A DNA stretch of 64,000 nucleotides from Gammaproteobacteria bacterium (GCA_963665145.1 OY762064.1:1480479-1544478), one strand, 5' to 3'; numbered from the stretch's first letter, positions 19,301 to 34,659 are shown. The notes: a model not told the origin generated them from the letters alone. A program made the numbers and translations.

Positions 19301-20194
19301 ATGGTAAACAGACGCACTTTTGTCACCGCCGCGGCAGGCGCGACCGGCACTCTCCTCGGCGCCGGGGCGCTTCAGGCCCGGGCTCCCGGTTCAATCAGCC
19401 CGCCGGTCAGTCAGGTTGTCTCCGAGTTCCTGTATTTCGATGACCCGGTGGAGGAGTTTCGCGCCCACATGCGAATGGGACGGGACCTGGTTGCGGAGCA
19501 GGGGAGCACTCTTACCTGGTATCACTGGCTCGTTTTCGTCATTCCGGGTGGACGGCGCCCGGAACCATTGTTGCGGTACGAAGGGATGGAGTTCAGCTAC
19601 TTCCGGCATCTCGGCAACAACAACTACCGTATCCATGCTCACAACGTTTCCTTCCCGCGGGACCTCAAGACCAATGCATTTACCCAAACGGTCACGAATC
19701 CCATAACCGGTGAACGTGTTGACGTGCCGGTGTCATCGCTGCTGCACGATCCGGGGACCATTGGAGGGCCTACGGGCTTCCGCAACCTCAACGGCGACGG
19801 TTCCGCCCAGAACCCCTTCCGCCAGTTTCGAGTTGAAAACGACCTCATAAAGCTCGATGTCGTGCGTAGCGCCCCACCCGATTGGCCGGCAACCCATATC
19901 GAAAACTCCTGCAGTTGGGTGGAATTCGACCTGTTCGCAAACGAGACCATTACGTCGCTCCCCGTTCACTTTTGCGGCCATTACGCGTACGAACATCCCA
20001 AGTGGCTGAAGATGCCCGAAGGCATGGGCCACCTGGCGGGGTTCTGGGACGGCAAGAAGCTCAACTCGGTAGCGGAATTGCCTCGGGAGTTTCTTGACCG
20101 AATGGAGCGCGAGTATCCGGAATTGCTGGAGCCGCGCTGGGGGGAATTCGAGCGTAAGATATCTTTCGACCTCAGCATTCCGGGAGCAGCATAA
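19301..20194 (+). CDS. DUF1838-like protein with Tat signal (paralog 1)
   Basis: NRRTFV signal; EPLLRYEG; NPITGE; C-terminal KLNSVAELP...YPE shared with the other paralogs. Confidence 0.7.
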   Translation: MVNRRTFVTAAAGATGTLLGAGALQARAPGSISPPVSQVVSEFLYFDDPVEEFRAHMRMGRDLVAEQGSTLTWYHWLVFVIPGGRRPEPLLRYEGMEFSYFRHLGNNNYRIHAHNVSFPRDLKTNAFTQTVTNPITGERVDVPVSSLLHDPGTIGGPTGFRNLNGDGSAQNPFRQFRVENDLIKLDVVRSAPPDWPATHIENSCSWVEFDLFANETITSLPVHFCGHYAYEHPKWLKMPEGMGHLAGFWDGKKLNSVAELPREFLDRMEREYPELLEPRWGEFERKISFDLSIPGAA

Positions 20195-20721
20195 TGACAA
20201 ACGCGATCAGCAACAGGAGGGCAGAACAGTTCCCGAGCCTTGCGATGCCGCTGGTAGCGCTGATGCTGCTGTCGCCGATCGGCGCTGGAGCCGATGAAAG
20301 CGGCGTCGTGCGCTTGTCGGAGCCCGTCGAGGCAACCGACACGCACGAGACCTTCGGCGCCAGCATGCCGGAAGCGGGACACGCAATGGCGCTTGCCGAC
20401 TTGCTTGCGGACGCTGACCGTTACCTGGACCGCGAAGTCAAGGTCACGACCCGCGTTGCCCAGGTTTGCCAGAAGAAGGGATGTTTCTTCATCGCGGAGG
20501 ACGAAAGCCATACCGCGCGTGTGTCGTTCAAGGACTACGGCTTCTTCGTACCCTCGGACATCAGTGGGCGAACCGTAACCCTGGCGGGCGAATTACAGCG
20601 CAAGGACTTGTCGGCCGAACAGGCCGACCATTACAACGAGGACATGAAGGCCGAGTCCACCGTAAAGCCCGGGCCGCAATACGAGATCGTGGCCACCTCA
20701 GTGCGCGTGCCTCGAGCGTAG
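20194..20721 (+). CDS. DUF4920-like exported protein (OB-fold-like)
   Basis: Signal-like N-terminus; VCQKKGCFF and VSFKDYGFFVP. TAATG overlap with the upstream gene; the start may be later. Confidence 0.7.
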   Translation: MTNAISNRRAEQFPSLAMPLVALMLLSPIGAGADESGVVRLSEPVEATDTHETFGASMPEAGHAMALADLLADADRYLDREVKVTTRVAQVCQKKGCFFIAEDESHTARVSFKDYGFFVPSDISGRTVTLAGELQRKDLSAEQADHYNEDMKAESTVKPGPQYEIVATSVRVPRA

Positions 20722-20728
20722 CGTGAGC

Positions 20729-21988
20729 TCAGGCATCCCATAGCATACTGACCGGCATCCCGAACAATCCGGAGCCTGTCTTCTGAACATGCTCGCCGTC
20801 ATGCAGCACGATCCCGCAGACGAAACTCTCGCCGGCGACCTCCCTCAGCCGCTCGAGTCCCCGGAAGTCCCGAGGCCGCAAGGTCGCGCCGGCTTTGACT
20901 TCAATACCAACCATTGTGCCGGGCGAGCGTTCCAGGATCAGGTCCACTTCCACGCCATCCTTGTCCCGATAGTGGCTGATCGTTGCCGTCTCTGGGGACA
21001 GTGCGACGGCCTTGGCAAGCTCCGCATAGACAAAACACTCAAGTAGCGGACCCAAGGACTGGCGATTCCCCGCAACTTCCCTTGTTCCCGTCCGCCGGAG
21101 TGCAGCCAGCAATCCGGAATCCAGAAAATGCAGCTTCGGCGCCTTGACGAGCCGTTTCAATCCGCTACGGCGCCAGGCGCGCACGCGTCGCACCACAAAC
21201 ATGTGCTCAAGCAAGACAAGCCAGCGGTCCACCGTCTTGCTGTCGACGCTGAGCCGAGTTCCGAGTTGAGACATGTTGAGAAGCTGGCCGGCCGATACAG
21301 CTGCATGGTCGACTAGCCGGACCATTTCATCGAGCTTTGTGACAGCGGCGATGTCGGAAACATCGCGCTCAGCCAGCGAACGCGCATAGGCGCGAAACCA
21401 GGCCCGGCGGCGCGCAGGCACGGGGCGCGACAGCACTTCGGGAAAACCGCCGGCGACCACCCTCTCGATCAGGTCGTCTATCACACCCTTGGCCGCAAAG
21501 GCCGGAAAGTCACCGGAGAACGCACGCTCGAGAAACCGGGATGGTCCGGTGGCGGCAATTTCGGCTTGCGAGAATGGCAACAGTTCGATGGTTTCGACGC
21601 GGCCGGCCAAAGAATCGGGAGACATCGATCCCTTGAAGAGATCGACTGAGCCCGTAATCAGGTAGCTTCCGGGGTGGGGATTTTCGTCGACCCTTTTCTT
21701 GAGAGCGAGAATAAGTTCCGGGGCGCGCTGCACCTCATCGAACGCAGCAAACGGCAGGCCTCGCACGAGACCCATTGGATCATCCCGGGCGAACTGCCTG
21801 AACTGAACATCGTCCAAGGTGATGAAAGGACGGTTCTCGTCACGGGCAATGCGCTGTGCGAGCGTCGTCTTGCCGGACTGACGCGGTCCAACGATGGCGA
21901 CGATGCGGGTGTCCGTTAGCGCCGTACGAATCGGCTCCTCGGCGTGCCGCTTCACAAATGATTCGATTTTGGCCGGCCGGTTCGGCAT
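20729..21988 (-). CDS. AAA-family ATP-binding protein with DUF4143 C-terminal domain
   Basis: Walker A GPRQSGKT; FDEVQRAPE; LITGS; SLAGR; PKLHFLDSGL; HYRDKDGVEVDLILE; IEVKAG. Confidence 0.88.
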   Translation of the reverse strand: MPNRPAKIESFVKRHAEEPIRTALTDTRIVAIVGPRQSGKTTLAQRIARDENRPFITLDDVQFRQFARDDPMGLVRGLPFAAFDEVQRAPELILALKKRVDENPHPGSYLITGSVDLFKGSMSPDSLAGRVETIELLPFSQAEIAATGPSRFLERAFSGDFPAFAAKGVIDDLIERVVAGGFPEVLSRPVPARRRAWFRAYARSLAERDVSDIAAVTKLDEMVRLVDHAAVSAGQLLNMSQLGTRLSVDSKTVDRWLVLLEHMFVVRRVRAWRRSGLKRLVKAPKLHFLDSGLLAALRRTGTREVAGNRQSLGPLLECFVYAELAKAVALSPETATISHYRDKDGVEVDLILERSPGTMVGIEVKAGATLRPRDFRGLERLREVAGESFVCGIVLHDGEHVQKTGSGLFGMPVSMLWDA

Positions 21989-22016
21989 GGTGTCTCGTCC
22001 GCTCCGGATTGGTTCT

Positions 22017-22052
22017 CCGTCTGATTCGGACTATAACACCGTCTATTTCGGA
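22017..22052 (-). promoter_or_regulatory. Two 14-bp direct repeats (22-bp period) around an extended -10-like box upstream of the ATPase gene
   Basis: CCGTCTGATTCGGA (22017) and CCGTCTATTTCGGA (22039); TGtTATAGT on the minus strand at 22030-22038. Confidence 0.45.
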
Positions 22053-22176
22053 ATGCCTGCTAACGCTACACCTTACGCAACGGCATAGCGCCCTCGCCGA
22101 ACGGCGCCACGCGCCTCATGACTTCAGCAGCGCCGCCGGATCTTCAGTCGAGTCTCCTGGGTTCGCAGGTCCGCCG

Positions 22177-23115
22177 CTACCCGCCGAACGCATCCAGCGC
22201 GGCTTCAGGGTCCTCCACCACATCGGGGTGCAGCCGCCGCGTGTAGGCCAGAAAATCCTCCGGCAAATCGTCGATCGACCTGGCCCTGGCGCCGTGGCCG
22301 TTCGAAGACGTGTGACCAGGAACGTCGCCCATGTGCATCCACGGCCGCCAACTGGTCATCGCCGAGTAGTTCACGAGAGCGTCTACCCGGGTCAGGTTCG
22401 GGTCCAGCACGTCGTCAAGCGGCGCGGACCAGACCGTGGATTCCTTGTAGAACATGTTGGGAATGTCGCTGTCAGTGGGCCGGACACGGCCGTGTTCCTC
22501 GTGACGCAGAAGCAGCGTGCCGTCCCGGACATATTCCGGATGAATGGACTTGGTCATTTGCACGGCTGCGGCCGGTGAGAAGGCCTCCTGCGTGGTGCCC
22601 TCCTGCGGCTCGAACTCCTCTCTTTCATCGAGGCGAACGGCAAACCGGGTGGTGGTGGGACCGAATCGGAATGCGGGCACCTCCACTTCCCGGTTCGTGA
22701 ACGGCATCACCAGTGTATCCAGCAGTTCCCAGGTCTCGAAATCCGTGTAGTGGGTGATTTCAAGGACAAGCGCTTCGAACAGGTCATCGGAGACTTGCCG
22801 ATAGCGGCCGAACACCGCACTGATGAGCCCGCAAAGCGGTTCGATACGCCCCCGCGATATGGAAAACCTCTTCGCCCGCAGCCAGCCGATTACGAGTTCG
22901 GAATCCAGGCTGCCGCGCATCTTGACCAGGGCGCGCAGAAGGTCCGGTTCACGGGTGAGGTCAAGTTCCCCGGCTGCCGAGGCGCGTAACGGAAGCATTC
23001 CGGGACCCAGCAAGGCGGCGCCCGCAAGCAGCGATTGGCACAGGCGTCGGCGGGTTGGCGACACGCCGGGGCCGGGTTCGGAATGAGGTTGAATCGGGAA
23101 CTGGATGAGCGACAT
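22177..23115 (-). CDS. DUF1838-like protein with Tat signal (paralog 2)
   Basis: TRRRLC signal; LDLTREPD; MPFTNREVEV; WRPWMHMGDVPG. Confidence 0.68.
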   Translation of the reverse strand: MSLIQFPIQPHSEPGPGVSPTRRRLCQSLLAGAALLGPGMLPLRASAAGELDLTREPDLLRALVKMRGSLDSELVIGWLRAKRFSISRGRIEPLCGLISAVFGRYRQVSDDLFEALVLEITHYTDFETWELLDTLVMPFTNREVEVPAFRFGPTTTRFAVRLDEREEFEPQEGTTQEAFSPAAAVQMTKSIHPEYVRDGTLLLRHEEHGRVRPTDSDIPNMFYKESTVWSAPLDDVLDPNLTRVDALVNYSAMTSWRPWMHMGDVPGHTSSNGHGARARSIDDLPEDFLAYTRRLHPDVVEDPEAALDAFGG

Positions 23116-23124
23116 GGCGTCTCC

Positions 23125-24303
23125 TCAATTTTCGAGCCCGGCCAGGACCAGGTTGGGCAGCGTGGAAGTGAGCCAGTCGGGATGGAAATAGCCCAGGCGC
23201 AGGATCACGAGCTCCTCATCCGGTATGACATACATGGTCCGGAAGCCGCCGCCTTCCAGGAAGAAGACTCCATCTGCTTCGATCGGCGGCCCATGGGGAG
23301 CGGACTGTTCCCTGTCCTGCACGTACAGCCGGATTCCGCCCGGGGGATTGCCCGCCCAGATCTGGTAGCCGTAATTCGGATAGATGGCCGATCCGGTGGT
23401 CATCTCCTCCACCCAGCCGGCAGGCCAGAGCTGACGCCCCGATACACGGCCATCCGAGGCCAGTGCGTCGCCGTAGCGCAGCCAGTCTCTTGGAGTGGCG
23501 CGGTAGCAGCAATAGACCGCCGGCATGCCGCCGGGCCGGTCCATGTAGAGCTGTGCCGGACCTGCGCCAAGAGGCGCCCAGAGCCTGCTGTTGAAGTAGT
23601 CTTCGTAAGCCTCGCCGGTCGCGCTTTCCAGCACTGCTCCCACGAGCTGGGCATTGGCGTTGGAGAAAGCGAAGAACTCGCCCGGCACGTTCTCAAGATC
23701 GAAGTCCAATGCCGCCGCGCGAAAATCGGAGCCCAGTGATATCCGGGCGTTCTTGCTGTATGGATCCGGGTCTCCGGCCAGCGGCGGGTTCTCCAACCCG
23801 CTGAGATTCCGCAGCAACTGGCGCACCGTGATCCCGCCGCGCGCATCGTCGCGCCATTCGGGAAGATAGCTGCCAACCGGATCGTCAAGCGATTCGATCG
23901 CCCCTTCCTGAATCGCGATTGCGACCAGCGGGGACAGCAGCGACCGGGTCATCGCGCGGCCGGTGAACAGCGAGTCGGGCCCGATGTCCTGCCAGTACTG
24001 CTCGATCTGCACTACCCTCCGGTGCAGCACCAGCAGCGCGACGCTGTGATGTTCCTCCGCCCAGGCCGCCGCCGCATCCAGAGCGCCGGCGTTAATCGTG
24101 AGCTCCCCCGTTCCAGCGACCGGAAAAAACTCCCGCGGACTACCCGGAACCTCGACTACCGGCTGGTAATAGCTCGCCGGCCACTCTCCGGGATCTTCCG
24201 GCAGCGTATTCCAGCGATACCAGAAACGCCAATCCACCAGCAGAGCCGCCGCCACCACAACGATGGCTGCGGCAATGCTGAGGGCACGGGCTACCCGGCG
24301 CAC
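23125..24303 (-). CDS. Beta-lactamase-family serine hydrolase homolog lacking the SxxK motif
   Basis: Co-linear with the N-terminal half of the 1222 protein, but A-M-T-R replaces S-L-H-K (Ala 23953-55, Arg 23944-46). Confidence 0.78.
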   Translation of the reverse strand: MRRVARALSIAAAIVVVAAALLVDWRFWYRWNTLPEDPGEWPASYYQPVVEVPGSPREFFPVAGTGELTINAGALDAAAAWAEEHHSVALLVLHRRVVQIEQYWQDIGPDSLFTGRAMTRSLLSPLVAIAIQEGAIESLDDPVGSYLPEWRDDARGGITVRQLLRNLSGLENPPLAGDPDPYSKNARISLGSDFRAAALDFDLENVPGEFFAFSNANAQLVGAVLESATGEAYEDYFNSRLWAPLGAGPAQLYMDRPGGMPAVYCCYRATPRDWLRYGDALASDGRVSGRQLWPAGWVEEMTTGSAIYPNYGYQIWAGNPPGGIRLYVQDREQSAPHGPPIEADGVFFLEGGGFRTMYVIPDEELVILRLGYFHPDWLTSTLPNLVLAGLEN

Positions 24304-24331
24304 AGCGATACTCTCTCAAGCGCTGGCAAGA

Positions 24332-25246
24332 TCAAGGAAGAGGGGCTTGGCGCACAGCCTCAGCGAATCGCCGCAATTCCGCATTAAAACGCTCAGGCTG
24401 CTCGACAAACACCGAATGCCCGGCTCCTTCGTACAGGGAGAGGCTCATGTTGTCATAGCCGGCGGCGAGCTGGGCCCCGTCGTCAAGCAGTAGCGGGTTG
24501 TCCTCCTGTCCCAGGCAAAACAGCACCGGCAATGAGATTTGCTCGACCAGGTCCTGGTTGTCGAGTTGGCGCTGCATCATGGCGCGCCGGACATAGGCAG
24601 GCAACATCAGGCCGATCGCCTGAAACAACTGCCTCTCGCGCTCGGGCAGGGGCGACGCCGTCAGCAGAGGAATCACCCGTTCGCCGGCGCGGATATAGTC
24701 AATCAAGTCCGGACTCTGCTGCAGTTCGCGGATACGCGCAAACTCCGCAGCGCCCGGATCGTCGTCCGTCGGCATCCGAAAAGGCTTCAGGGCGCCCTGA
24801 CCGCCGGTCAAAATGATCCCGGTGATGCCGTTGACGCCGAACTCGCGGAAATAATCCATCGCCACCAGCGTGCCGTAGGACCAGGCGACCACCACCGGCC
24901 GTTCAATATCGGTGGCCGCGATCACGGCGGCGACATCCCGAGCCCACACTTCGGACCCGCTGTACGCCTCCGTGGCCCAGGGCTTGCCGGACGCCCCATG
25001 GCCCCGCAGGTCGAAAGCCACGAGGAAGTAATCATCAGCAAGATCGGAGTCGAGCTGGTGAAAGAAACTGTAATGGCTTTGACCGAAGCCGTGGATCAGC
25101 AGTATCGCTGGATTGGCCGGGTCTCCGGCCGTGACCACGTTCAGGGGCACGCCGCCGGCGCCCTCCACGGTTTGAAATTCCCAGTCCGCCAGGCAATGCT
25201 GAGCAAACGCGAGCGCAGCCAGCGCCATGAATCTTCGCAAAATCAT
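24332..25246 (-). CDS. Secreted alpha/beta hydrolase (esterase / non-heme haloperoxidase-like)
   Basis: Signal peptide; ILLIHGFG; FDLRGHGAS; elbow AWSYG; GAGHSVF. Confidence 0.85.
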   Translation of the reverse strand: MILRRFMALAALAFAQHCLADWEFQTVEGAGGVPLNVVTAGDPANPAILLIHGFGQSHYSFFHQLDSDLADDYFLVAFDLRGHGASGKPWATEAYSGSEVWARDVAAVIAATDIERPVVVAWSYGTLVAMDYFREFGVNGITGIILTGGQGALKPFRMPTDDDPGAAEFARIRELQQSPDLIDYIRAGERVIPLLTASPLPERERQLFQAIGLMLPAYVRRAMMQRQLDNQDLVEQISLPVLFCLGQEDNPLLLDDGAQLAAGYDNMSLSLYEGAGHSVFVEQPERFNAELRRFAEAVRQAPLP

Positions 25247-25357
25247 TAGTCGTCCTCTTCACATCCCGGATTCACCGACCGCAACTCGGCCAGGAAGCAT
25301 TCAGGATAGTCGCCCGGGCCGAACAGGTGGCCGAGCCGATGGCGAACCTGGTGGGTA

Positions 25358-27760
25358 CTAAAAACTCGCGGCCAAGGTCACGCCAAAGGTGCGCGGCTCG
25401 GGCAGCGTCAGCTGGTAGCCCAGCGTACCCGTCAGGAAACTGCCCGTGGTGCGCTGCGATGAAAGCACGGAGTCGTCATCGGTCACGTTTTCGACCCAGA
25501 AGGTAACGCTGTAGCGATCGTTGCGCCAGCCACCGCGAAGATTGTGCAGCATCGCCTCCTCTGTCTTGGCAAGGTTGATCACCCAGGTCCAGGTTGACGA
25601 TTGATACCAGGCATCCCAGCGGGCGAACCACTCGCCGTCGCCAGTCCAGATGTTCTCGGCGGGCATATTGAAGTCCAGAGCAAGTGTCGCGGCATGATCG
25701 GGCGAGCGGGCCACCTCCAGGCCACTTGCATCAGCGCTGCCATAGACCCGTCTGTTCTGGTTATCCTGATAAACCTTGATGTCGCTGCTGTTGTGGTTGT
25801 AGGACGCGGTGCCGCGCCAGTTCTCGCTGAACGCCCAGCTTCCCGCCAGCTCAAACCCCCAGATGTCGGTGCTGCCGTTACTGTCGTAATCGACCTGTGC
25901 GCCGAGCCGGTCCGACCCCTGAATGAAACGGCCGTCACCATTGCTGTCCACGTCTCGGGTGAAACCCCTAAAGCGCTGGTTTTGCCATTGCATGAAATAG
26001 ACCGCCCCGTTCAGGTAGCCTCTGCCGCCGGCGAGGGTGTGCTTGCCGCCGAACTCGAAGGAGTCAAGCTCGGCCTGCAGGACTTCGTAGCCGATTCCTT
26101 CCGCCGCGTTGAACGCCGGAAACGCAATCGTCGGCTCCAACTGGATGACCTCGGGATTGAAGCCGCCCGGATTGTTGCCCTTCGAATAGCTTGCATAAAG
26201 CAGGGTGTTGTCAGTGAACTTGTAGTCCACGATGATCCGCGGCAGCTCCGCCTCGAAATCGGCGGCCAGGTCGACCTCAGCCCCGCCGAAGGGCTGCGCC
26301 GTACCGATGGGATCGTTCGGATCGAGCGGCATGGCCTCCTGAATCACGGAGGACGCGTTCGCAAGCGCTTCCTCTTCATACCGGAACTCCAGGCTGACGG
26401 AAAGTTGCTCGGTAATGTCATAAGCCACGCTGCCGAATATCGCCTGGTTTTCGACGTTCTGGGCGATGACTGGAGTGGGCGAGAAAAGGCCGCGGCCGCC
26501 TCTTCCGCTAATCGCGCCGACCGTCGGGTCGAAGCAGAAGGGCCCACCACCGGGACAGGGGAAGGCGGTTAAACCCTCCTGGCCGTACGTCAGGTCGAGA
26601 TAGTAGGCGCCCACCATCCAGCGCAGCCTTTTGTCCTGGGGCGAGGTCAGGCGCAGTTCCTGAGACCACGACTCGTCCTTCCATCCCACGTAGACCTGAA
26701 GTTCGTCCGTGAGGAGTTCGCGCAATTCTGCCGTGTCCTCGCGGTACTGACCCGTCACTGAGCTCAGCGTGTAGCCGCCGATGTCCCAGTCAATATTCAG
26801 GCTGGTGAGTTCGGTAGTGCGATCAAGTCCCATGTTGTCCTTGTAGACCGTATCCTCCACAGGCGACGTGTCGATGGCGATGCCGTTGGAGATCAGGTCA
26901 CGGCTCAGCGTTCCGCAGTAGTAATTGCTGGTCCCCATAACACCGTTGGTGGTGAAGGGTCCGCAATTGTTGTTCTCACCCTTGACCAGAAACTGAACGG
27001 CCAACCCGTCGTCGTCCTCGGTTCGCACATGACGCAGCTTGATGGAGAGATCTTCCGTCGGCGTGGCGTAGAGAGTCACGCTGCCGGCGTTCGTCTGCTG
27101 GGAGCCCAGATCACCGCCGGTGGGGTGCTCGTTTTTCCAGGCCCCGTCGTAGGTGTAAAACCTGCCGGACGCCCGGAAGTACAGTCGGTCCTCAACGATC
27201 GGACCTTCGGCGCTGACCCACACGTCCGCGCGGCCGCTGTCGCCGAGGATCAGGTTGATGTCGCCGCCAAAGTCATCGCCCGGCGTCCTGCTGATGAAAT
27301 TGATCGCACCGCCGAAGGTAGCCCGGCCGAAGAAGGCGCTTTGCGGGCCTTTCACGACCTCCACGCGCTCGATGTCGTTCATGGACAGCCACTGGCTGGT
27401 TCCCGGCAGATAGACGCCATCCACAAAAGCGGACGATGTCTGCGAGCTGCGAACGCTCGAGGGGGGGTCGATGGCGCGGAACCGGATCGCCGGATTGTTG
27501 CGGTTACCGGTGTGGTTGCTCATGTGCACGCCCGGAACGAACTGCAGCATGTCTTCGACATCCGTGATCTGCTGCTCCCTGAGCTGCTCAGAGCTGAAAG
27601 CCGCGACGCTCAGCGGGATGTCCTGAATCGACTCGTCGCGCTTGCGCGCCGTCACCACGATTTCCTCAAGAGCCAGGTCTTGCGCCATGACTGCCATATC
27701 GGCAACTAGCAAACTCAGTACGGCACCACTCAGCAAAAGACGATTGTGCAGACTATGCAT
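25358..27760 (-). CDS. TonB-dependent receptor
   Basis: RBS GGGAGG; LEEIVVTARKRDESIQDIPLS; ERVEVVKGPQSAFFGR; C-terminal WVENVTD...GVTLAASF. Confidence 0.92.
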   Translation of the reverse strand: MHSLHNRLLLSGAVLSLLVADMAVMAQDLALEEIVVTARKRDESIQDIPLSVAAFSSEQLREQQITDVEDMLQFVPGVHMSNHTGNRNNPAIRFRAIDPPSSVRSSQTSSAFVDGVYLPGTSQWLSMNDIERVEVVKGPQSAFFGRATFGGAINFISRTPGDDFGGDINLILGDSGRADVWVSAEGPIVEDRLYFRASGRFYTYDGAWKNEHPTGGDLGSQQTNAGSVTLYATPTEDLSIKLRHVRTEDDDGLAVQFLVKGENNNCGPFTTNGVMGTSNYYCGTLSRDLISNGIAIDTSPVEDTVYKDNMGLDRTTELTSLNIDWDIGGYTLSSVTGQYREDTAELRELLTDELQVYVGWKDESWSQELRLTSPQDKRLRWMVGAYYLDLTYGQEGLTAFPCPGGGPFCFDPTVGAISGRGGRGLFSPTPVIAQNVENQAIFGSVAYDITEQLSVSLEFRYEEEALANASSVIQEAMPLDPNDPIGTAQPFGGAEVDLAADFEAELPRIIVDYKFTDNTLLYASYSKGNNPGGFNPEVIQLEPTIAFPAFNAAEGIGYEVLQAELDSFEFGGKHTLAGGRGYLNGAVYFMQWQNQRFRGFTRDVDSNGDGRFIQGSDRLGAQVDYDSNGSTDIWGFELAGSWAFSENWRGTASYNHNSSDIKVYQDNQNRRVYGSADASGLEVARSPDHAATLALDFNMPAENIWTGDGEWFARWDAWYQSSTWTWVINLAKTEEAMLHNLRGGWRNDRYSVTFWVENVTDDDSVLSSQRTTGSFLTGTLGYQLTLPEPRTFGVTLAASF

Positions 27761-27855
27761 GGTTTTTCCTCCCAATTAGTCCTGATCACGCTGCGTCAAC
27801 GGCAATTGTTGCTGAATAAGCATCGCTTTATTTATGGCTCTTAGCCACGATTTGC

Positions 27856-27884
27856 ATTCTAGGCAATGAATTGAACAACTGCAA
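27856..27884 (-). promoter_or_regulatory. Sigma70-type promoter TTGCAG-N17-TAGAAT for the TBDR
   Basis: Located in an AT-rich intergenic patch with exact 17-nt spacing, about 95 nt upstream of ATG 27760. Confidence 0.55.
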
Positions 27885-27948
27885 ATAACCATAAAGTTCA
27901 AACAGTCGGCTGTACGCTTTCCTTGCCGGGTTCAGCGGCCTTTGATGC

Positions 27949-28854
27949 CTATTCCTGCCGCTCGCTTTCCATTTCGTCCATGTACTCCTGTATTTCGTCC
28001 CTGGGATCCTCCCAGTTGTCGATATCGAAGATTTCCGGTGTTTGTGCTTCGAGATTGGCCCGGTAGGCCGCCGGAATCTGATCGAAACTGTCGATCTTGG
28101 CGCCGTATGCGCGCCCCCAGGTGCGCCCGGGACGTTGGCCCATGTTGTGCCAGGGCTGCCAGCTCACCAGGTTCTGGAACTGAGTGTGAGTGTGCACGCT
28201 CGGCCTTGAGCGATCCGCCAGCTCTCTAAGGCTGGCGAAGTGCACATAGTGGGAATCCCAATACATGATTTCGCCGGAGGACTTCTCGGGCCACTCGTCC
28301 GGCTGGAAAGGATTGCGATGGCTGATGTTCATCTCCGTGGCCAGCATCACGGTGTCGCCGAACACCTCGATGTTGAGAAGTTTGGTGGTTGCTTCTCGCT
28401 CCGGCGGCAGCACCAGTCCGTTCGGGCCGTATTCCGCCTTTAGCGGACCGCCCAAAAACGGCAGCACCTCGATAACCTGGCCCGTCACGGGATTGGTCCA
28501 GGTCTCAAGCAGCTCAGACGAATCGAACCTGGTATAGGCGCCGGACTCGTAGACCCTCACGTCATAGTTCCCGTTCGCCATCGGCCGCCATTTGCTGACA
28601 TTGAGATTGGACATGGTCATCCAGGGCTCGATATTTCCTCGATGGTGGTAGGCGTAGATATGGAGGCGGAAGAACGAGTACACGGTTTCCTCTGCCGTCG
28701 AGCCGACTACCGAGGCAATAATGCGGCCCCTTTCTGCAGGATCATCCAGGTCCAGGCCGGGGATTGCACCCCTCGCGGCTGCCGGCGGCCAGGCGACGGC
28801 TGTGCCCAGGGCGCCGAGAATTGCGCTGCGCCGGCTAAAGGCAAATGGGTTTAT
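27949..28854 (-). CDS. DUF1838-like protein with Tat signal (paralog 3); probable ATA start
   Basis: The frame is open upstream of GTG 28683 and encodes FSRRSAILGALG...PGLDLDDP. AGGAG lies 9 nt before ATA 28854. Also NPVTG and WQPWHNMGQRPG. Confidence 0.68.
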   Translation of the reverse strand: MNPFAFSRRSAILGALGTAVAWPPAAARGAIPGLDLDDPAERGRIIASVVGSTAEETVYSFFRLHIYAYHHRGNIEPWMTMSNLNVSKWRPMANGNYDVRVYESGAYTRFDSSELLETWTNPVTGQVIEVLPFLGGPLKAEYGPNGLVLPPEREATTKLLNIEVFGDTVMLATEMNISHRNPFQPDEWPEKSSGEIMYWDSHYVHFASLRELADRSRPSVHTHTQFQNLVSWQPWHNMGQRPGRTWGRAYGAKIDSFDQIPAAYRANLEAQTPEIFDIDNWEDPRDEIQEYMDEMESERQE

Positions 28855-28893
28855 GGATTTTCTCTCCTGGCAGGCTTTTGCGGAAGGTCAGGA

Positions 28894-30063
28894 TTACCAG
28901 TTCCGCCTGCTGGTGAAATGGCGCGACGCGTCCGCAGCGTCCACGGGCTGATAGGACGCCTGCGAATTGGGGCCGTCGCGCGGCACATACCGCTCGTAGA
29001 CTGGCCGCAGCATCTCCATCGGAACGCCGGGCGGAATGGAACGTGAGCGGCGGAATGCCGCCATCGGGATGCTTGTCCGCACGAACTCCTCGTGCACCGA
29101 CCGGGCGCGCGCCGCGATCGTTCCGCGCGGATCGAAGATGGCCGTGTCGCCTGAACCCGAGAACTCCGGAAAGCCCGGTTGCTCCGGCGAGACGGACTGG
29201 TTGCAGACGACGCTCCAGAGCCGGTTGTGCCGCGCGATGGTCTGGGCCCCGGTAAGACTGTAGCCCCCCGAGGACGAGCTCAGGCGGATTTCCAGACCCT
29301 TCATGGCGAGCGCGCGGATCACGTCCGGCTGGCTGGGCGTGATCGAGCAGGAAATATTGCCGATTTCGGTGCGCGCCACCTGTAGCACGGCATCCTCGCC
29401 GTACATCTCGCGGTAGCGATCGAGCACATCGTAGATCCCGGTCGTAAAGATGTCCCAGCCGGGAATGAAACCGCGAATATTGTTGGTCTTCCAGTGATTG
29501 GCGACCACGTTGCCCTCGGGGCCGATCAGCACGCCGTTGAGCAACAGGTGGCCCGGCCAGTCCGGGTCTTTCGCATAGGTGCCGAACGTGATGTAGCAGC
29601 CGTATTCCTTCGCTTTCTTTCCCAGCGCCTCGGTTTCCGGTCCCGGTATTTCGATGGCCACGCGCAGCACTTCTTCGCGGGTCCATGGATTCCAGCCCAT
29701 GATCGGCTGCTCGTGGAAGCACACCAGGTCCTGCGGGCCCCCAAAACCATTCGCCTGGTCTATCAGTTCGAGCATGTGGTCGAGATTCGCCTTCATCTCG
29801 GGTTCGGGATTCGCCGTGTCGCGAACCGCGCGCATGATGGACTGCACGGCAGTCACGCGCAGCGTGTCCTTGCGCAGCGGCACGCGCTCGTAGTTGCCGT
29901 CCGCGGCCACGCTGACGGCTCCGCCGCCGCCTGCCGCCGCGTCTTCAGCCCTTGCAGCCCCGCTTCCCAATGCCAGCGCCACCGCGCCGGCCGAACCGGC
30001 CGTCAATATCTCGCGGCGGCGTGGAGATTCCGGAGAATCGTTCCTGTCGAGCTTGTTACCCAT
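28894..30063 (-). CDS. Nitrilase-fold carbon-nitrogen hydrolase homolog with Tat signal
   Basis: PRRREIL signal; LRVTAVQS; CFHEQP (Glu); HWKTN (Lys); RALAMKGLEI; GSGDTAIFDPRG. Confidence 0.75.
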   Translation of the reverse strand: MGNKLDRNDSPESPRRREILTAGSAGAVALALGSGAARAEDAAAGGGGAVSVAADGNYERVPLRKDTLRVTAVQSIMRAVRDTANPEPEMKANLDHMLELIDQANGFGGPQDLVCFHEQPIMGWNPWTREEVLRVAIEIPGPETEALGKKAKEYGCYITFGTYAKDPDWPGHLLLNGVLIGPEGNVVANHWKTNNIRGFIPGWDIFTTGIYDVLDRYREMYGEDAVLQVARTEIGNISCSITPSQPDVIRALAMKGLEIRLSSSSGGYSLTGAQTIARHNRLWSVVCNQSVSPEQPGFPEFSGSGDTAIFDPRGTIAARARSVHEEFVRTSIPMAAFRRSRSIPPGVPMEMLRPVYERYVPRDGPNSQASYQPVDAADASRHFTSRRNW

Positions 30064-30066
30064 GGT

Positions 30067-31074
30067 TTACTCCCTTTCGTTGAATTCGCTTAAAGGACCG
30101 ATCTTGCGGTCCAGAAATTCCTTGACCGCACGTCCTGTGGCTTCCGGCATCGAGATATGCAGAAAGTGCCCGCCGCCTTCGAAGATGATCTTCTCTGTGC
30201 TCTCGGCGTTCTTCATCGCATCCGCGAAGAGCTGGGCGGTTTCGGGCGATAGCGCCCTGCTCGCGCCGCCCCACATCACCAGCGCCGGCGCACGAACCCG
30301 GGCGAGCACGCGCTCTGGATTGCCGCGTTCGTACATCTGCCAGGCAATGAACCCTTCACGGTCGCGGCCGATCATGTTCCAGTAGTCGGTCTTTCGCCGG
30401 ATCAGCTCCTCGGTGATGTTGCTGTCGTCGTTTACCGACAGGCGAAGGTTCGCAGCCATCTCCTCGGTCGTAAACCTTTTCGGCACAAACACGGCCGACG
30501 TATTGCGCACCCGCTCCATTGTCCCCCCGCGACCGCCATATTCGATGCCGGCCGAGTTCTGCAGCACCAGGGCGGTCACGCGATCCGTGCGGGTGCCGGC
30601 GTACCGGAACGCCACCAGTCCGCCATAGGATGTTCCGGCGATCGCGAAACGATCGATTCCCAGGTGGTCCATCAGGCTGTCCACCAGCGTCAGGAACCGG
30701 TCGATAGAGTAGTTGCCGCTCGGCACCGGGCCCGTCAGGCCGAATGCCGGCAGATCGAAGCGCACGACCCGGTAGTCGTCGCCGAGGATTTCCACCCAGC
30801 CGTCGTAATCCTTGAGATCGCCCGTCGAACTGTGCATCAGCAGGACCGTGGGACCCGATCCCTGGTCCTTGTAATGGACCCGAATACCGTCATTTCCTTC
30901 GAGCACGACGAATCTGGAGTCCTCGTCCGCATACCTGGCCACGATCTCCTCATAAGTGATCGTGCCGGCCGACTCGGGTTCGGCAGCGGCCCAGGATGAC
31001 CGGGCGAATGGCGCCAGCGCGCCAAGGGCCGCAAAACAGACCAGCAGCACGGGCCAGTTGAAACGCGGCCTCAT
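30067..31074 (-). CDS. Alpha/beta hydrolase with signal or anchor; paralog of 6022-7014
   Basis: DSRFVVL, GPTVLLMHSS, FDLPAFGLTG, GTSYGG, GGHFLH. Confidence 0.85.
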   Translation of the reverse strand: MRPRFNWPVLLVCFAALGALAPFARSSWAAAEPESAGTITYEEIVARYADEDSRFVVLEGNDGIRVHYKDQGSGPTVLLMHSSTGDLKDYDGWVEILGDDYRVVRFDLPAFGLTGPVPSGNYSIDRFLTLVDSLMDHLGIDRFAIAGTSYGGLVAFRYAGTRTDRVTALVLQNSAGIEYGGRGGTMERVRNTSAVFVPKRFTTEEMAANLRLSVNDDSNITEELIRRKTDYWNMIGRDREGFIAWQMYERGNPERVLARVRAPALVMWGGASRALSPETAQLFADAMKNAESTEKIIFEGGGHFLHISMPEATGRAVKEFLDRKIGPLSEFNERE

Positions 31075-31078
31075 GCCG

Positions 31079-31924
31079 TTAGCCTTCCAGCGCGCCCGCG
31101 GGGTCCTCGTAGATTTCCGGGTGCCGGGTCCTGATGAGTTCCTCAAGTCGCTGCGGCATGGCATCGAACGACGAAACCTTGCGCCCGAAACCGCGGGAGA
31201 CGTAGTCGCCGGGCCGATCGCCCATCCCCATCCAGGGCAGGTAGCTCAAGATATCGTTGAAGTGCCAGGTGGCGGGCGCATTCAGGACCTGGGGATTGGC
31301 CACGTCCTCAAGCAAGCCGTGATAGGTGCTCCAGTCGTTGCCCCGAAATGGCCGGCCGGCCTCGGGCGTCTCCGGTTCCATGCGGAATATGGCGTCGTCC
31401 CGAACCCATACGTCGTCCCCCTCGATCACCGCGGGACCCAGAGGATGGATGCGAATGCTCCTGAAGCCTTCCCCGGCCGGCCGCTCCTTCGGGGACTCAT
31501 CGATGCTGCGCACTTGCGTCGCCGGGCGGGCGGGGAAATAGCTGACCTCGTCCTCCTGGCCCGTAAACGGGTTTTTGAATGTTTCCAGGAATTCGCCGGT
31601 TTTCAGATCCGTGTAATAGACCATGCTGATGGCCGTCGTCTCGTAGGCTCCCTGGTCGTCGAAATCCCGCGTCTTGAGAACCGCGCCCACATGAACGTTC
31701 CACAACGGCGTGGAGATCTTGTCGATCACGGCCATCCTCAGCAGCTGCGCCCACCAATAGACAAGACTGTCGTCCATCGTGTGCGCCAGCTTGCGGGTGA
31801 TCATGAGCGTGTGGTGCGGATTGGATGGATCCAGATCCAGCATCTGCGCGCGCGCTGCCGGGACCCTCACCAGCGGCGCGGCGGCGGCAGCGCCGATAAG
31901 GCCCAAGGCCGTTCTGCGTTTCAT
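31079..31924 (-). CDS. DUF1838-like protein with Tat signal (paralog 4)
   Basis: MKRRTALG; LDLDPSNP; NPFTG; YLPWMGMGDRPG; HPEIYEDP. Confidence 0.7.
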   Translation of the reverse strand: MKRRTALGLIGAAAAAPLVRVPAARAQMLDLDPSNPHHTLMITRKLAHTMDDSLVYWWAQLLRMAVIDKISTPLWNVHVGAVLKTRDFDDQGAYETTAISMVYYTDLKTGEFLETFKNPFTGQEDEVSYFPARPATQVRSIDESPKERPAGEGFRSIRIHPLGPAVIEGDDVWVRDDAIFRMEPETPEAGRPFRGNDWSTYHGLLEDVANPQVLNAPATWHFNDILSYLPWMGMGDRPGDYVSRGFGRKVSSFDAMPQRLEELIRTRHPEIYEDPAGALEG

Positions 31925-32050
31925 TTCTTCTCTCCCAATTTGCCGATAGCCAATGTCGATGAACACGTGAGCATCACGCAGTCACCTCCAGACCCCCGTG
32001 CATCCTATACCGAATCAAGCGTCCCCACCCCAGACGCCAGCCTCCATTTG

Positions 32051-33520
32051 TCAGAGCCGGTCCGCCACCTCCAGCGCAACCCTCTCGGCGGACTCCATCG
32101 CCCCTTCCATGCCCCGATTCATGGTGGCGGTGTGCTCGCCGCAGAAGTGAATCCGGCCATGCGGCCGGGCCATGCGGGGTAGCAGTCCCTGCACCTGTCC
32201 CGGCGCGAAGATCGCCCAATCGCCCGCATTGTGAGGATCGAGCCACCAGGAATGAAAGCCACCCGGTTCGAGCGTGCCCTTCGCGGCCGGACGCAGCCGC
32301 TCGATTTCACGAATCACCCAGGCCTGCGCCTCGGCGGACCCAAGGCGATCGAGCTGATCCGCCACCCAGCCACGGGTGTTGACCACCAGTCCGGTGACTT
32401 CGGCAGGGTCCTCGCCGAAGCGCTGCGCGGCCACCACGCCCAGCCGGCCGTTGGTCCACATCGACGGCGATAGCCCATCGTCTTTCCAGAACGGGCGCCT
32501 GGGCACCAGGAACACCAGGGTATTGCGCATGTACTGGAGCGTGCCCACCGCTTGCCGCTGAACGCCCTCAAGAGGCGGCGAGACGGCAATGTCCCTGACC
32601 TTTGAGAACGGCGCCGAACACACCATAAAGGGTGCGTCGAACGAGTCCCCGCCGCGGCACCTCACGCGAACGCCGTCGACACGGTCCTCGATACTCAACA
32701 CTTCCTGTCCGAACCGGATTTCCCGTGTGAGTGCGCCCGCCATGGCCTCCGGCAGGCGCTGATTGCCGCCTTCCACAGCGTAGGCCGCAGGCCCGATTGC
32801 GGTCTGCTCTCGTATCCAGCGCTCGTTGAACAGATACATCAGCGCCGAAACGTCCCAGGCGGACGTCCCATAGTAGGGGTTGGTGTCGTACGCCGTGCGG
32901 ACCTCACCGTCGCTCAAGCCCTGTTCCAGGAAGTAGTCGTGCAGAGGCACATCCAGAGAGCCGAACTTCGGGTCCACCCAGGCCGAGGACGCGGGCAGGG
33001 GATTGCGTGAGGCAGTTCGCGTAGCGATCAACTCCCAGGGCATCCTGTCGCGGGACCCTTCGGCGAATGGATTTCGCAGGGACGCCGCCCATTCGGCCCG
33101 GCTCAGCAGCGCTTCGTCATGGACCAGTTCCGGCGGCGGTCCGCCGAACAGGCGCGCGGCGTAGTCCACCAGTGGCACATCGAGCCTCCGCGCCATCGAG
33201 ATCATCCGTGCGTATCCGCTCGCAATGGTGTTGCCGCCCACCTCGGGGTGGCCGGGAAGGTCATAGAGGGTATGTACGCGTCCGCCGACCCGCGAGCGGC
33301 TCTCGATGACCTGTACCGACGCCCCCAGTTCCTCGAGCAACAGCGCCGTGTAGAGACCGGAAAGCCCGGCGCCGACGATTAACACGTCGGTCGCCGCCGA
33401 ATCCGCGCCGGCTTTGGTTCGTTCCGCCTGCCTGGCGCCTGCTGCCGGCGCCCGGGCAGCGAATCCCGCGAAACCCGCCAGCGCAAGCACACCGGTACTG
33501 AAGGCACGTCGATTCAGCAT
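32051..33520 (-). CDS. Flavin monoamine oxidase / L-amino acid oxidase family protein with Tat signal
   Basis: NRRAFS signal; VLIVGAGLSGL; SRVGGRV; RIHFCGEHT; GMEGAMESAER. Confidence 0.88.
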   Translation of the reverse strand: MLNRRAFSTGVLALAGFAGFAARAPAAGARQAERTKAGADSAATDVLIVGAGLSGLYTALLLEELGASVQVIESRSRVGGRVHTLYDLPGHPEVGGNTIASGYARMISMARRLDVPLVDYAARLFGGPPPELVHDEALLSRAEWAASLRNPFAEGSRDRMPWELIATRTASRNPLPASSAWVDPKFGSLDVPLHDYFLEQGLSDGEVRTAYDTNPYYGTSAWDVSALMYLFNERWIREQTAIGPAAYAVEGGNQRLPEAMAGALTREIRFGQEVLSIEDRVDGVRVRCRGGDSFDAPFMVCSAPFSKVRDIAVSPPLEGVQRQAVGTLQYMRNTLVFLVPRRPFWKDDGLSPSMWTNGRLGVVAAQRFGEDPAEVTGLVVNTRGWVADQLDRLGSAEAQAWVIREIERLRPAAKGTLEPGGFHSWWLDPHNAGDWAIFAPGQVQGLLPRMARPHGRIHFCGEHTATMNRGMEGAMESAERVALEVADRL

Positions 33521-33648
33521 GAAAAAAATGACCTGGCTGCCTGACTGGGACTCTAGCATGCAGCCGAAAGGCCCTGGCCAATTGCAAACGGCCTTCGGCC
33601 TGTCTAGACTCGCGGATTGGGAATACGCGCATCAACCGGGAGGCCCCC

Positions 33649-34659
33649 ATGCCGCACCATTTCGACTCACCATTAAGTCGCCGCAATGTACTCGTCGGGG
33701 GCGCCGCTCTTGCGGCGGCTTCGGCATTGCCTGCCTGCGGCGGCACGCAGGAACAGGAACAGGCGCAGGAACCGGCTCAGGATCGGATCGACTACGACTG
33801 GATGAACCCGATGGATAACCTTGAAGCGTACTTCAAGCTGACAAGTTCGCTTAAGGACCGGGACTGGGCGCAAGGCTGGTACTCGGGCCTGGTCTTCGGC
33901 ATGCTGCCGAACCAGACTCCGGATGCGCTGTTCGGCCTGGAAGGCTTCGGCATGGGCTACACGGTGCGCCAGGAGAACGGCGCCTTCGCCAGCTTCTGGA
34001 AGGAAGTGGGTTTCTACAAGGACCTCAAGACCAACGAGATTATCGAGACCTGGGAGAACCCCTACACCGGGGAGACCAACAAGGTCATGCACATCCACAA
34101 TCGCATGGTCAAGGGCGTGTTCGGCCCCAATTTCCGCTCCCAGGCGCCGGTTGGGGACCAGACCGGAGAAATGTTCTTCAAGTTCCCCAACTACCGGGCG
34201 TCCGACGACCCCAGCAATCCCTTTGTCCTGAACTGGCAGACCATCGGCGATCAGACGTCGGTGTGGCTGGACTTCCGCGGCGTGGTGCCCAATCTGCTCG
34301 ACCCCGAGGTCTGGGTACGGGAGTCCACCGGCGAACTCCTGCCCGTTTGCGAAATGTTCGAGTACGTCTGCAACGACGACGATCTCCGTAATCCCTCCCT
34401 GGACCGCGTGAAGCACAGCGGTTCCTGGATCCGCCTGGCCCCCTGGCTGCCGTGGCAGATGATGGGCCGGCACGAAGGCCGCCTGTTCTACCGCTGCACG
34501 ACCCGGGGCCTGGACAATCTCGAGCAGCTCCCGCCGAACATCCTCACCTACGCGCAGAAGAACTATCCGGAATACCTGGTCCAGGAAATCAATGAGGACC
34601 AGCCAAGCGAGTCGTCGTTCGAGGTCTACATGAAGGAGAACGAACCGGCCCCGATGTAA
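33649..34659 (+). CDS. DUF1838-like protein with Tat signal and lipobox (paralog 5)
   Basis: SRRNVL...LPAC; DALFGLEGF; NPYTGE; WLPWQMMGRHEG; QLPP...YPEY. Confidence 0.75.
   Translation: MPHHFDSPLSRRNVLVGGAALAAASALPACGGTQEQEQAQEPAQDRIDYDWMNPMDNLEAYFKLTSSLKDRDWAQGWYSGLVFGMLPNQTPDALFGLEGFGMGYTVRQENGAFASFWKEVGFYKDLKTNEIIETWENPYTGETNKVMHIHNRMVKGVFGPNFRSQAPVGDQTGEMFFKFPNYRASDDPSNPFVLNWQTIGDQTSVWLDFRGVVPNLLDPEVWVRESTGELLPVCEMFEYVCNDDDLRNPSLDRVKHSGSWIRLAPWLPWQMMGRHEGRLFYRCTTRGLDNLEQLPPNILTYAQKNYPEYLVQEINEDQPSESSFEVYMKENEPAPM

Follow-up and report, generated by a model that had tools for sequence, protein, structure and literature searches.

What do five members of an uncharacterised protein family do in an island of nutrient-breakdown genes? 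The window analysed here, 64,000 nucleotides from a sponge-associated gammaproteobacterium with a 2.95-Mb genome (GCA_963665145.1, OY762064.1:1480479-1544478), includes a 15-kb island in which such genes lie beside oxidases and hydrolases (Table 1). Relatives of this genome carry the name Candidatus Foliamicus. A sequence-only reading of the window had described the five proteins as DUF1838-like, after a family without assigned function. The Pfam entry is indeed a 'protein of unknown function', none of the five matches an NCBIfam model, and in the literature searched, on Foliamicus as well, DUF1838 appears only as an ORF in the gene-cluster tables of two papers, with nothing functional. Weak Pfam matches in 63 family members comprised nothing but DUF1838 and Tat-signal models. 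The 14 model organisms that served as controls lack the family, and this partly accounts for its having gone unstudied.

Table 1. Genes of the island, numbered from the first nucleotide of the window.
Feature	Coordinates	Strand	Evidence
Exported sulfatase	16324..17637	+	Pfam Sulfatase, E = 4e-68; Sec-type signal and CTPSR formylglycine motif read in translation
GMC flavoprotein, choline dehydrogenase-like, without signal peptide	17634..19235	+	Pfam GMC_oxred_N/C
DUF1838 paralog 1, leader MVNRRTFV...QARA	19301..20194	+	PF08894, E = 5e-6
Exported DUF4920 protein	20194..20721	+	PF16267, E = 1.8e-20; signal peptide seen
DUF1838 paralog 2, leader TRRRLCQSLLAGAALLG	22177..23115	-	PF08894, E = 9e-13
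Beta-lactamase-fold protein (AMTR)	23125..24303	-	PF00144, E = 4e-28
Exported alpha/beta hydrolase abh1, elbow AWSYG, catalytic His present	24332..25246	-	Pfam Abhydrolase_1/6
TonB-dependent receptor	25358..27775	-	Pfam Plug and TonB_dep_Rec_b-barrel
DUF1838 paralog 3, leader FSRRSAILG, ATA start	27949..28854	-	PF08894, E = 1e-19
CN hydrolase, own Tat leader (SPRRREIL)	28894..30063	-	PF00795, E = 1e-15
Exported alpha/beta hydrolase abh2, GTSYG elbow	30067..31074	-	Pfam; public gene call of 335 aa
DUF1838 paralog 4, leader MKRRTALGLIG	31079..31924	-	PF08894, E = 5e-19; public call of 281 aa
Flavin amine oxidase, own Tat leader (MLNRRAFSTGVLALAG)	32051..33520	-	PF01593, E = 8e-45
DUF1838 paralog 5	33649..34659	+	PF08894, E = 1.5e-38; TAT_signal

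Five old paralogs of one family

All five proteins score above the curated gathering threshold of PF08894 (25 bits), with 26.8, 49, 71.6, 69.4 and 133.3 bits for paralogs 1-5, and thus belong to one family as first proposed. The weakest match, that of paralog 1, is confined to the N-terminus; against the profile of the paralog-5 subfamily, hhalign aligned this protein over its full length (263 columns, 98.7% probability). In length and motifs (NPxTG, PWxxMG) the five agree with the Pfam family, and their architecture is predicted to fit it as well, except that the NPxTG motif, once ascribed to every paralog, reads MPFTN in paralog 2. Pairwise identities of 19-23% and subfamily-specific polar positions bear out their strong divergence. 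DUF1838 has neither an assigned function, an NCBIfam model nor a solved structure, and membership is silent on mechanism.

The paralogs fall into five separate, well-supported clades that are common to Steroidobacteraceae, Caulobacteraceae and other Gammaproteobacteria. The clade of paralog 1 includes Steroidobacteraceae members, that of paralog 2 unites Steroidobacteraceae with a gammaproteobacterial metagenome-assembled genome (L020), and paralog 4 forms its own clade. This distribution indicates that the five genes are old paralogs and not products of local duplication. Close relatives that have lost the amine oxidase and paralog 3 still keep the other paralogs.

This genome encodes 22 DUF1838 genes, and each of the 22 genomes sampled from the genus likewise shows an expansion of the family. 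Paralog 2 matched one of 250 genomes in an even, class-wide sample, too few to be informative. Six of the 22 genes occupy a span of ~36 kb where 0.27 would be expected (Poisson estimate ~4e-7 per span of that size, ~5e-5 allowing for all such spans); the clustering exceeds chance. Nine co-directional minus-strand genes, from the amine oxidase to paralog 2, form an array with gaps of 3-188 nt, in which abh2 follows paralog 4 after 4 nt. The plus-strand unit opens with the sulfatase, followed by the GMC flavoprotein, paralog 1 and the DUF4920 gene, the last two overlapping at stop and start. Paralog 5 is oriented divergently from the amine oxidase. A search of the island's intergenic regions for a shared operator or Fur box found none.

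Export signals

A twin-arginine leader had been noted on each paralog. The arginine pair is present in all five (NRRTFV, TRRRLC, SRRSAI, KRRTAL and SRRNVL in paralogs 1-5), followed in each case by a hydrophobic stretch read by eye, and the same genome encodes TatC (PF00902, E = 3.8e-66). The pair also occurs in 76-77% of 168 aligned DUF1838 members. The Pfam TAT_signal model exceeds its cut-off for paralog 5 only. Tat export of the five paralogs is plausible from these leaders. Three DUF1838 paralogs of this genome carry Sec-type signals, so that Tat export, and with it the argument for a cofactor, is not universal in the family.

Paralog 5 combines its Tat leader with a lipobox (ALPAC) and a Q/E-rich linker; the lipobox is restricted to its closest clade. 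Paralog 3 has no ATG, GTG or TTG upstream of its leader, and an in-frame ATA lies 8 nt past AGGAGA (28854-28852, minus strand). Its orthologues L015-L017 have ATG at this position, and the ATA recurs in three independent metagenome contigs.

A conserved module with a dead beta-lactamase-fold protein

The neighbour of paralog 2 had been taken for a serine hydrolase, an assignment that its sequence contradicts. AMTR replaces SxxK and FSN replaces YxN, and the catalytic Ser, Lys and Tyr are absent. By these motifs the protein is a conserved pseudoenzyme and not an enzyme: AM[TS]R recurs in 113 of 120 homologues, and five other beta-lactamase-fold paralogs of the genome keep SxxK. Its N-terminal hydrophobic stretch is a probable membrane anchor.

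The AMTR gene lies 9 nt from paralog 2. A DUF1838 gene adjoins it in six of six independent look-ups selected on the AMTR protein alone, and the two co-occur across genomes. Orthologues of abh1 stand beside the AMTR protein in four of the six look-ups, and a TonB receptor adjoins in 4/6 independent contexts. TonB receptor, alpha/beta hydrolase, AMTR protein and DUF1838 form a conserved module, the strongest of the functional links. Paralog 2 belongs to this core module, which is widely conserved and unstudied.

Neighbourhoods vary outside the module. The proposed link to a receptor-fed degradation pathway is mixed: a receptor recurs in the module, but in this genome only 2 of 38 TonB receptors have a DUF1838 gene within 5 kb. 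Five of nine amine-oxidase matches and four of nine CN-hydrolase matches are found within that distance (~7.5% expected), and the orthologous amine oxidase adjoins paralog-5 types in five of eight independent lineages. MFS carriers flank four other DUF1838 paralogs of this genome, and further paralogs adjoin FAD_binding_4, FMO-like and SnoaL genes. In L061, cytochrome c and FAD_binding_4 genes lie beside a DUF1838 gene.

Pfam matches and signals read in the translations show the neighbours to be exported oxidases and hydrolases, in support of the earlier reading, apart from the signal-less GMC protein and the pseudoenzyme beside paralog 2. The best PDB relatives of the amine oxidase are L-amino-acid and monoamine oxidases. 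Glu117 and Lys192 of the CN hydrolase align with formamidase, and Cys239 was assigned by sequence reading in a region unaligned to any solved structure. Unbiased clustering also returned recurrent neighbour 'families' for the commonest subfamily. Judged by the coordinates of their representatives, these are, except for the alpha/beta hydrolases, apparently shadow ORFs overlapping the DUF1838 gene itself.

Fold and conservation

The AlphaFold model of paralog 5 (pLDDT 90, pTM 0.83) comprises about ten long beta strands with flanking helices, and the predicted beta structure can be read as a barrel. For paralogs 1-4 a similar fold would follow from the alignment, paralog 5 being the sole model. 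The top Foldseek matches have probabilities of 0.97-0.98, TM-scores of 0.27-0.43 and identities of 7-12%, and these weak matches include the lipid- or haem-binding barrels LmcA, nitrobindin Rv2717c, LprG and a haemophore. The best TM-score of 0.43 is normalised to the 161-residue 2FR2 and is 0.24 when normalised to the query; no match to lipocalin/calycin or nitrobindin barrels reaches 0.5. LmcA (7N3V), nitrobindin Rv2717c (2FR2) and lipocalin/calycin proteins are likewise all-beta, with long antiparallel strands, and belong to the cell envelope, but the usual criteria do not place them in one fold with DUF1838, and no sequence relationship links them to it. PDB searches by sequence, family profile and fold returned no relative of DUF1838. 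Only leader regions matched other Tat proteins, MelC1 and similar proteins being the only profile matches.

Family-wide conservation is confined to turn and aromatic motifs (D125, N137-P138, W269, M272, G277). Paralog 5 and the core subfamilies retain the polar residues E119/H148/N151/S226/E235/R262, which are replaced in paralogs 1-4, and polar positions conserved inside a subfamily differ between subfamilies.

Proposed function and alternatives

We tentatively favour, as a possible rather than a probable reading, that DUF1838 proteins bind ligands in the periplasm as partners of exported catabolic enzymes and of transporters. The paralogs would leave the cytoplasm already folded via Tat; paralog 5 would become a lipoprotein and the other four would stay soluble in the periplasm. 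They would act as small-molecule-binding partners, not as enzymes of one shared chemistry. A substrate or intermediate imported by a TonB-dependent receptor could be bound by a DUF1838 protein and handed on, either to an exported oxidase or hydrolase encoded nearby or to an MFS carrier of the inner membrane. Paralog 5 goes with an orthologous amine oxidase. While family membership, export signals, the predicted paralog-5 fold, old paralogy and conserved gene neighbourhoods are shown directly, binding of a ligand, its transfer to partners and physical complexes of any kind are inferred. The earlier idea of a periplasmic ligand-binding or catalytic family survives in its single family, plausible Tat export and divergence; its cofactor argument is weakened by the Sec-type paralogs. 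Several points count against binding partners: polar positions conserved within subfamilies would equally fit active sites, a non-enzymatic binder has no obvious need for Tat, neighbourhoods vary outside the core module, and close relatives have lost the amine oxidase and paralog 3.

The most serious alternative, which we consider rather unlikely, is that these proteins are themselves enzymes, barrels that need no cofactor and act, for example, as hydrolases, isomerases or cyclases or in imine processing; each subfamily would have its own active site and use the product of the neighbouring enzyme as substrate. Many polar residues are invariant in the paralog-5 subfamily (E98, E119, H148, N151, D208, S226, E235, R262, Y281, R282), the genes sit in catabolic operons at about 1:1 or 1:2 with enzymes, and the FAD_binding_4, FMO-like and SnoaL neighbours would suit such a role. 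Polar conservation across subfamilies is, however, nil save for the turn-forming Asp and Asn, and no barrel enzyme appears among the fold matches. A dead hydrolase-fold protein and MFS carriers as partners suit binding better.

It is improbable that the paralogs are Tat escorts or obligate structural subunits that carry signal-less partners such as the GMC protein to the periplasm. FAD glucose and sorbitol dehydrogenases offer a precedent, their GMC-type subunit being escorted by a small subunit with a Tat signal. The gene of the signal-less GMC protein lies 65 nt ahead of paralog 1, flanked in its unit by genes for the exported sulfatase and the exported DUF4920 protein. Its likely start is a CTG overlapping the sulfatase stop (CTGA), and orthologues in five lineages likewise begin directly at the Rossmann strand. 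These are signal-less in lineages without an adjacent paralog-1 type, and the protein, which resembles choline dehydrogenase (NCBIfam 560 bits, under the 605-bit cut-off), is therefore probably cytoplasmic. The pairing with paralog 1 is confined to a close clade, and hitchhiker export of the GMC protein is not supported. Tat leaders are found on the amine oxidase and CN hydrolase themselves, Sec-type signals on the alpha/beta hydrolases and sulfatase, and a hydrophobic N-terminus on the AMTR protein; the three Sec-type paralogs would be ill-suited escorts.

Least likely of all, by a shade, are Tat-exported carriers of a cofactor such as non-covalent haem b that take electrons from nearby periplasmic flavoproteins, as cytochrome c does from NicA2-type amine dehydrogenases: folded export, the frequent flavoprotein neighbours (amine oxidase, GMC, FAD_binding_4, with cytochrome c in L061), the weak matches to nitrobindin and a haemophore, the near-invariant W269-M270-x-M272 and a Cyt-b5 domain on two eukaryote-like homologues would fit, but no His/Cys ligand set is conserved across subfamilies, some paralogs are Sec-exported, the TM-scores are too low for shared function, fusion to Cyt-b5 points to a haem carrier other than the barrel, and Streptomyces members of 248 aa with a 232-position domain would, by their lengths, leave little room for a signal peptide.

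Comparison with known systems

SusC/SusD polysaccharide utilisation loci and the TonB-dependent 'CUT' loci of Xanthomonas combine a TonB importer with exported degradative enzymes and accessory binding proteins, as the island may do, with MFS carriers elsewhere in the genome. Unlike SusC/SusD loci, the island has no SusD-like lipoprotein in a Pfam scan of the receptor's neighbours (hydrolases and DUF1838 only). It has no glycoside hydrolases; its enzymes comprise an amine oxidase, a CN hydrolase and hydrolases of the esterase type, and its accessory proteins would be Tat-exported DUF1838 barrels and the dead beta-lactamase-fold protein.

Known Tat hitchhiker helpers are the gamma subunit of FAD glucose dehydrogenase and MelC1, the 'caddie' of Streptomyces tyrosinase. 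Paralog 1 beside the GMC gene repeats their pattern of an RR-leader protein next to a signal-less flavo- or metalloenzyme, but here all other neighbouring enzymes have their own signal or hydrophobic N-terminus, and the GMC-paralog 1 adjacency is clade-limited. D-aminopeptidase DAP and Pab87-type peptidases join a beta-lactamase-fold domain to beta-barrel domains, and AMTR and DUF1838 would pair such a penicillin-binding-fold unit with small beta-barrels in trans. In DAP and Pab87 the barrels are fused and Ser-x-x-Lys is intact, whereas here the genes are separate and the nucleophile is gone; no DAP/Pab87-type entry is among the 50 best fold matches listed.

We speculate, with more doubt than attaches to either ligand binding or barrel enzymes, that DUF1838 barrels and the dead beta-lactamase-fold protein constitute an undescribed periplasmic capture-and-hand-over layer. 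Equally doubtful is its placement between TonB receptors and exported oxidases/hydrolases or MFS carriers, with barrel subfamilies dedicated to particular partners. If real, such a layer would join ABC/TRAP binding proteins and SusD-type lipoproteins as a third class of substrate-binding component in the periplasm. Receptor, hydrolase, dead penicillin-binding-fold protein and barrel, optionally with amine oxidase and CN hydrolase, offer a starting point for finding the function, and this gene set may show how nitrogen-containing organic matter is handled in the periplasm of marine and host-associated Proteobacteria.

Other observations

Fusion proteins suggested that DUF1838 proteins might form heteromers, an idea set aside as too thin: P0178 is the only clear two-domain protein in which two types that occur as adjacent pairs are joined. 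A second, shorter DUF1838 match is present in most of the homologues 484-507 aa long. Paralog 5 is covered by RNA contigs from relatives.

Five divergent DUF1838 proteins with twin-arginine leaders

The window encodes five proteins (paralogs 1-5) of DUF1838 (PF08894), a catalogued family without an assigned function. ORF listing, translation and Pfam matching bore out the five DUF1838-like genes of the sequence-only reading. All ORF translations exceed the 25-bit cut-off of the family (E = 5e-6, 9e-13, 1e-19, 5e-19 and 1.5e-38 for paralogs 1-5 in order), and with pairwise identities of only 19-23% they are as highly diverged as had been proposed. The Pfam match of paralog 1 is confined to the N-terminus. 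Against the paralog-5 subfamily profile, however, it aligns along 263 columns (98.7% probability), and based on this full-length alignment and the Pfam matches we consider all five to be true members. The shared motifs described earlier are largely present, namely PWxxMG in paralogs 2-5, KWLKMPEG in paralog 1 and a (Y/H/T)PE/D segment near the C-terminus, but NPxTG occurs in only four of the five, as paralog 2 has MPFTN instead.

In each translation an RR leader precedes a hydrophobic stretch, and the same genome encodes TatC, in agreement with the predicted Tat export. Paralog 5 additionally possesses a lipobox (ALPAC) and a linker rich in Q/E. This combination, with ALP[AG]C as the lipobox and Q/E/D enriched in the linker, is limited to the closest clade; orthologues further away (~70-79% identity) keep the RR pair in an ordinary Tat leader and lack the cysteine. 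There is no ATG, GTG or TTG upstream of the leader of paralog 3. The in-frame codon, 8 nt after AGGAGA, is ATA, and the same ATA is found in three independent metagenome contigs. Orthologues at loci L015-L017 have ATG at exactly this codon. Because ATA stands in place of ATG and no paralog-3 gene was found in several closer relatives, either this copy is translated weakly, from a near-cognate start, or its decay is at an early stage.

Genome-wide expansion of DUF1838

The 2.95-Mb single-contig genome, in which the window occupies C1:1480479-1544478, encodes 22 DUF1838 proteins, of which 18 have RR leaders (five of these with a lipobox), three have Sec-type leaders and one is cut at the contig start. 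Six copies occur within ~36 kb, compared to 0.27 expected. The sixth, just before window position 1, is very divergent (leader MNRRDMMRAG) and adjoins a beta-lactamase-fold/DUF3089 fusion and another TonB receptor. The expansion is genus-wide (22/22 genomes, 5-39 matches each) but unevenly distributed in the order (8 of 20 genera); the family was absent from all 14 model organisms checked. The relatives carry the titles Candidatus Foliamicus or Foliamicaceae and isolate names that resemble sponge metagenome bins, and several runs containing the sequence are labelled sponge metagenome.

A FastTree phylogeny combining the 22 paralogs with 54 homologues of other lineages resolved paralogs 1-5 into five separate clades (97-100% local support). 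Steroidobacteraceae or other Gammaproteobacteria are represented in the clades of paralogs 1, 2 and 4. The paralog-5 clade includes further gammaproteobacterial MAGs and a single Rhodospirillales-labelled MAG, and its sister group is Caulobacteraceae; only the paralog-3 clade is confined to Foliamicaceae within the tree sample. Five well-supported clades, most of them common to other lineages, indicate that the paralogs are ancient subfamilies inherited together rather than products of local duplication.

A conserved pseudoenzyme in a widespread gene module

Pfam matches and motif reading place nine genes in one tight co-directional array on the minus strand, with paralog 5 divergent from the amine oxidase gene.

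Features of the window and related loci (window coordinates, or contig coordinates where prefixed C1; array genes numbered in array order)
Feature	Position	Strand	Gap to next (nt)	Remarks
Sulfatase		plus		Sec-exported
GMC flavoprotein		plus		choline-dehydrogenase-like, signal-less
GMC start region	17634-17660	plus
Paralog 1	19301	plus		follows GMC
DUF4920 protein		plus		exported, follows paralog 1
AAA_14/DUF4143 ATPase	20729-21988	minus		between paralogs 1 and 2
Amine oxidase (array gene 1)		minus	126	own Tat leader
Paralog 4 (array gene 2)	31079	minus	4
Alpha/beta hydrolase abh2 (array gene 3)		minus	3
CN hydrolase (array gene 4)		minus	39	own Tat leader; Glu, Lys and Cys present
Paralog 3 (array gene 5)	27949	minus	173
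Paralog 3 ATA codon	28852-28854	minus
TonB-dependent receptor (array gene 6)		minus	111
Alpha/beta hydrolase abh1 (array gene 7)		minus	28
Beta-lactamase-fold protein (array gene 8)	23125-24303	minus	9
Paralog 2 (array gene 9)	22177	minus		last of array
Paralog 5	33649	plus
Paralog 5 lipobox and linker	33649-33780	plus
ResA/TlpA-like thioredoxin-fold protein	34682-35728	minus		exported, convergent with paralog 5
Sixth clustered DUF1838	C1:1479206-1480612
MFS_2 carrier beside DUF1838 159373	C1:157880-159400
MFS_2 carrier beside DUF1838 1962765	C1:1963652-1965190

The ATPase gene looks like a lineage-specific insertion, since paralogs 1 and 2 are directly adjacent at L006-L010 in relatives. In most close relatives (L005-L017, L021) the ResA/TlpA-like gene likewise adjoins paralog 5. 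Ahead of its Rossmann strand, the GMC gene lacks any ATG, GTG or TTG codon. If the DYIVVGAGSAG strand is to be retained, the sole plausible start is a CTG that overlaps the stop codon of the sulfatase gene (CTGA); starting at the listed GTG would remove this strand.

The neighbor of paralog 2 had been taken for a serine hydrolase, but this beta-lactamase-fold protein has AMTR at the SxxK position and FSN at the YxN position. SxxK is intact in five other beta-lactamase-fold paralogs of the same genome. AM[TS]R occurs in 113 of 120 database homologues (48-100% identity), and DUF1838-linked homologues in Caulobacteraceae and in further gammaproteobacterial MAGs have AMTR or AITR as well. Judged by these residues, the AMTR protein represents a highly conserved pseudoenzyme clade.

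As an independent test, six distant homologues on long contigs, including Congregibacter and Lysobacterales, were picked by the AMTR protein alone. A DUF1838 gene adjoins it in all six contexts, and a TonB receptor is adjacent in four, as is an abh1-type hydrolase (4/6). Among 41 relatives, the 17 genomes with an AMTR orthologue (≥61% identity) all have at least 18 DUF1838 matches, and the 12 without DUF1838 have no AMTR-protein match at E ≤ 1e-60. This adjacency and co-occurrence indicate that receptor, hydrolase, dead fold and putative barrel form a real and widespread module, whose three other genes adjoin paralog 2 in the window. No description of it was found in the literature searched.

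Predicted fold and conservation

An AlphaFold2 model of paralog 5 from a 63-sequence alignment is confident (pLDDT 90, pTM 0.83); in it, about ten long beta strands, which we read as a barrel, lie between an N-terminal helix and C-terminal helices. Foldseek returned nothing convincing from the PDB. The best matches were LmcA (TM 0.27-0.32) and nitrobindin Rv2717c (TM 0.43, normalised to this small target); outer-membrane barrels and PsbO ranked next. When the PDB was searched by sequence and by profile, matches were confined to the leader region. Paralog 5 is thus predicted to be a beta-rich protein, probably a soluble barrel, without a solved relative.

Near-invariant positions over 168 family members (D125, N137-P138, W269, M272 and G277) are turn formers and aromatics. 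The polar residues E119/H148/N151/S226/E235/R262 persist in paralog 5 and a few core subfamilies but are replaced in paralogs 1-4. Such a constant scaffold, on which the polar residues vary, is consistent with different specificities; this pattern alone would be compatible with both binding and catalysis.

Putative roles beside exported enzymes and carriers

The sequence-only reading was confirmed as an observation, with three corrections. Its interpretation, periplasmic ligand-binding or catalytic proteins serving degradation fed by TonB receptors, is partly supported. The best-supported reading, which we propose tentatively, is that the paralogs bind ligands in the periplasm as partners of exported enzymes and carriers. 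An amine oxidase orthologue adjoins paralog-5 types in five of eight independent lineages. Within 5 kb of a DUF1838 gene in this genome lie 5/9 amine-oxidase and 4/9 CN-hydrolase matches, compared to ~7.5% expected, and only 2 of 38 TonB receptors. MFS carriers flank four paralogs elsewhere in the genome: two of one clade (159373 and 1962765) are each beside an MFS_2 carrier, and three apparent MFS carriers, one confirmed by Pfam (MFS_1), surround the pair 1213881/1215071. Other neighbors are FAD_binding_4, FMO-like and SnoaL genes.

That DUF1838 is a family of barrel enzymes ranks second and seems rather doubtful; the conservation pattern is compatible with catalysis, but the variable polar set argues against one common mechanism. 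The proteins could instead escort signal-less partners through Tat, as the GMC protein without a signal might suggest. However, GMC orthologues in five other lineages also have their start directly at this strand, none of them next to a paralog-1 type; the protein scores as choline-dehydrogenase-like; and each of the other neighboring enzymes has its own signal, except one that has a hydrophobic stretch at its N-terminus. Given that these orthologues start at the Rossmann strand and that the other enzymes have their own signals, we rank hitchhiking low, as possible but unlikely. A role as cofactor carriers is likewise possible but unlikely.

RNA contigs of relatives (~90-95% identity) cover paralog 5 in four metatranscriptomes, weak evidence that it is expressed. 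Two DUF1838 homologues (P0129 and P0134) have transit-peptide-like N-termini and a C-terminal cytochrome-b5-like domain, which may point to a connection with redox chemistry or with hydrophobic ligands.
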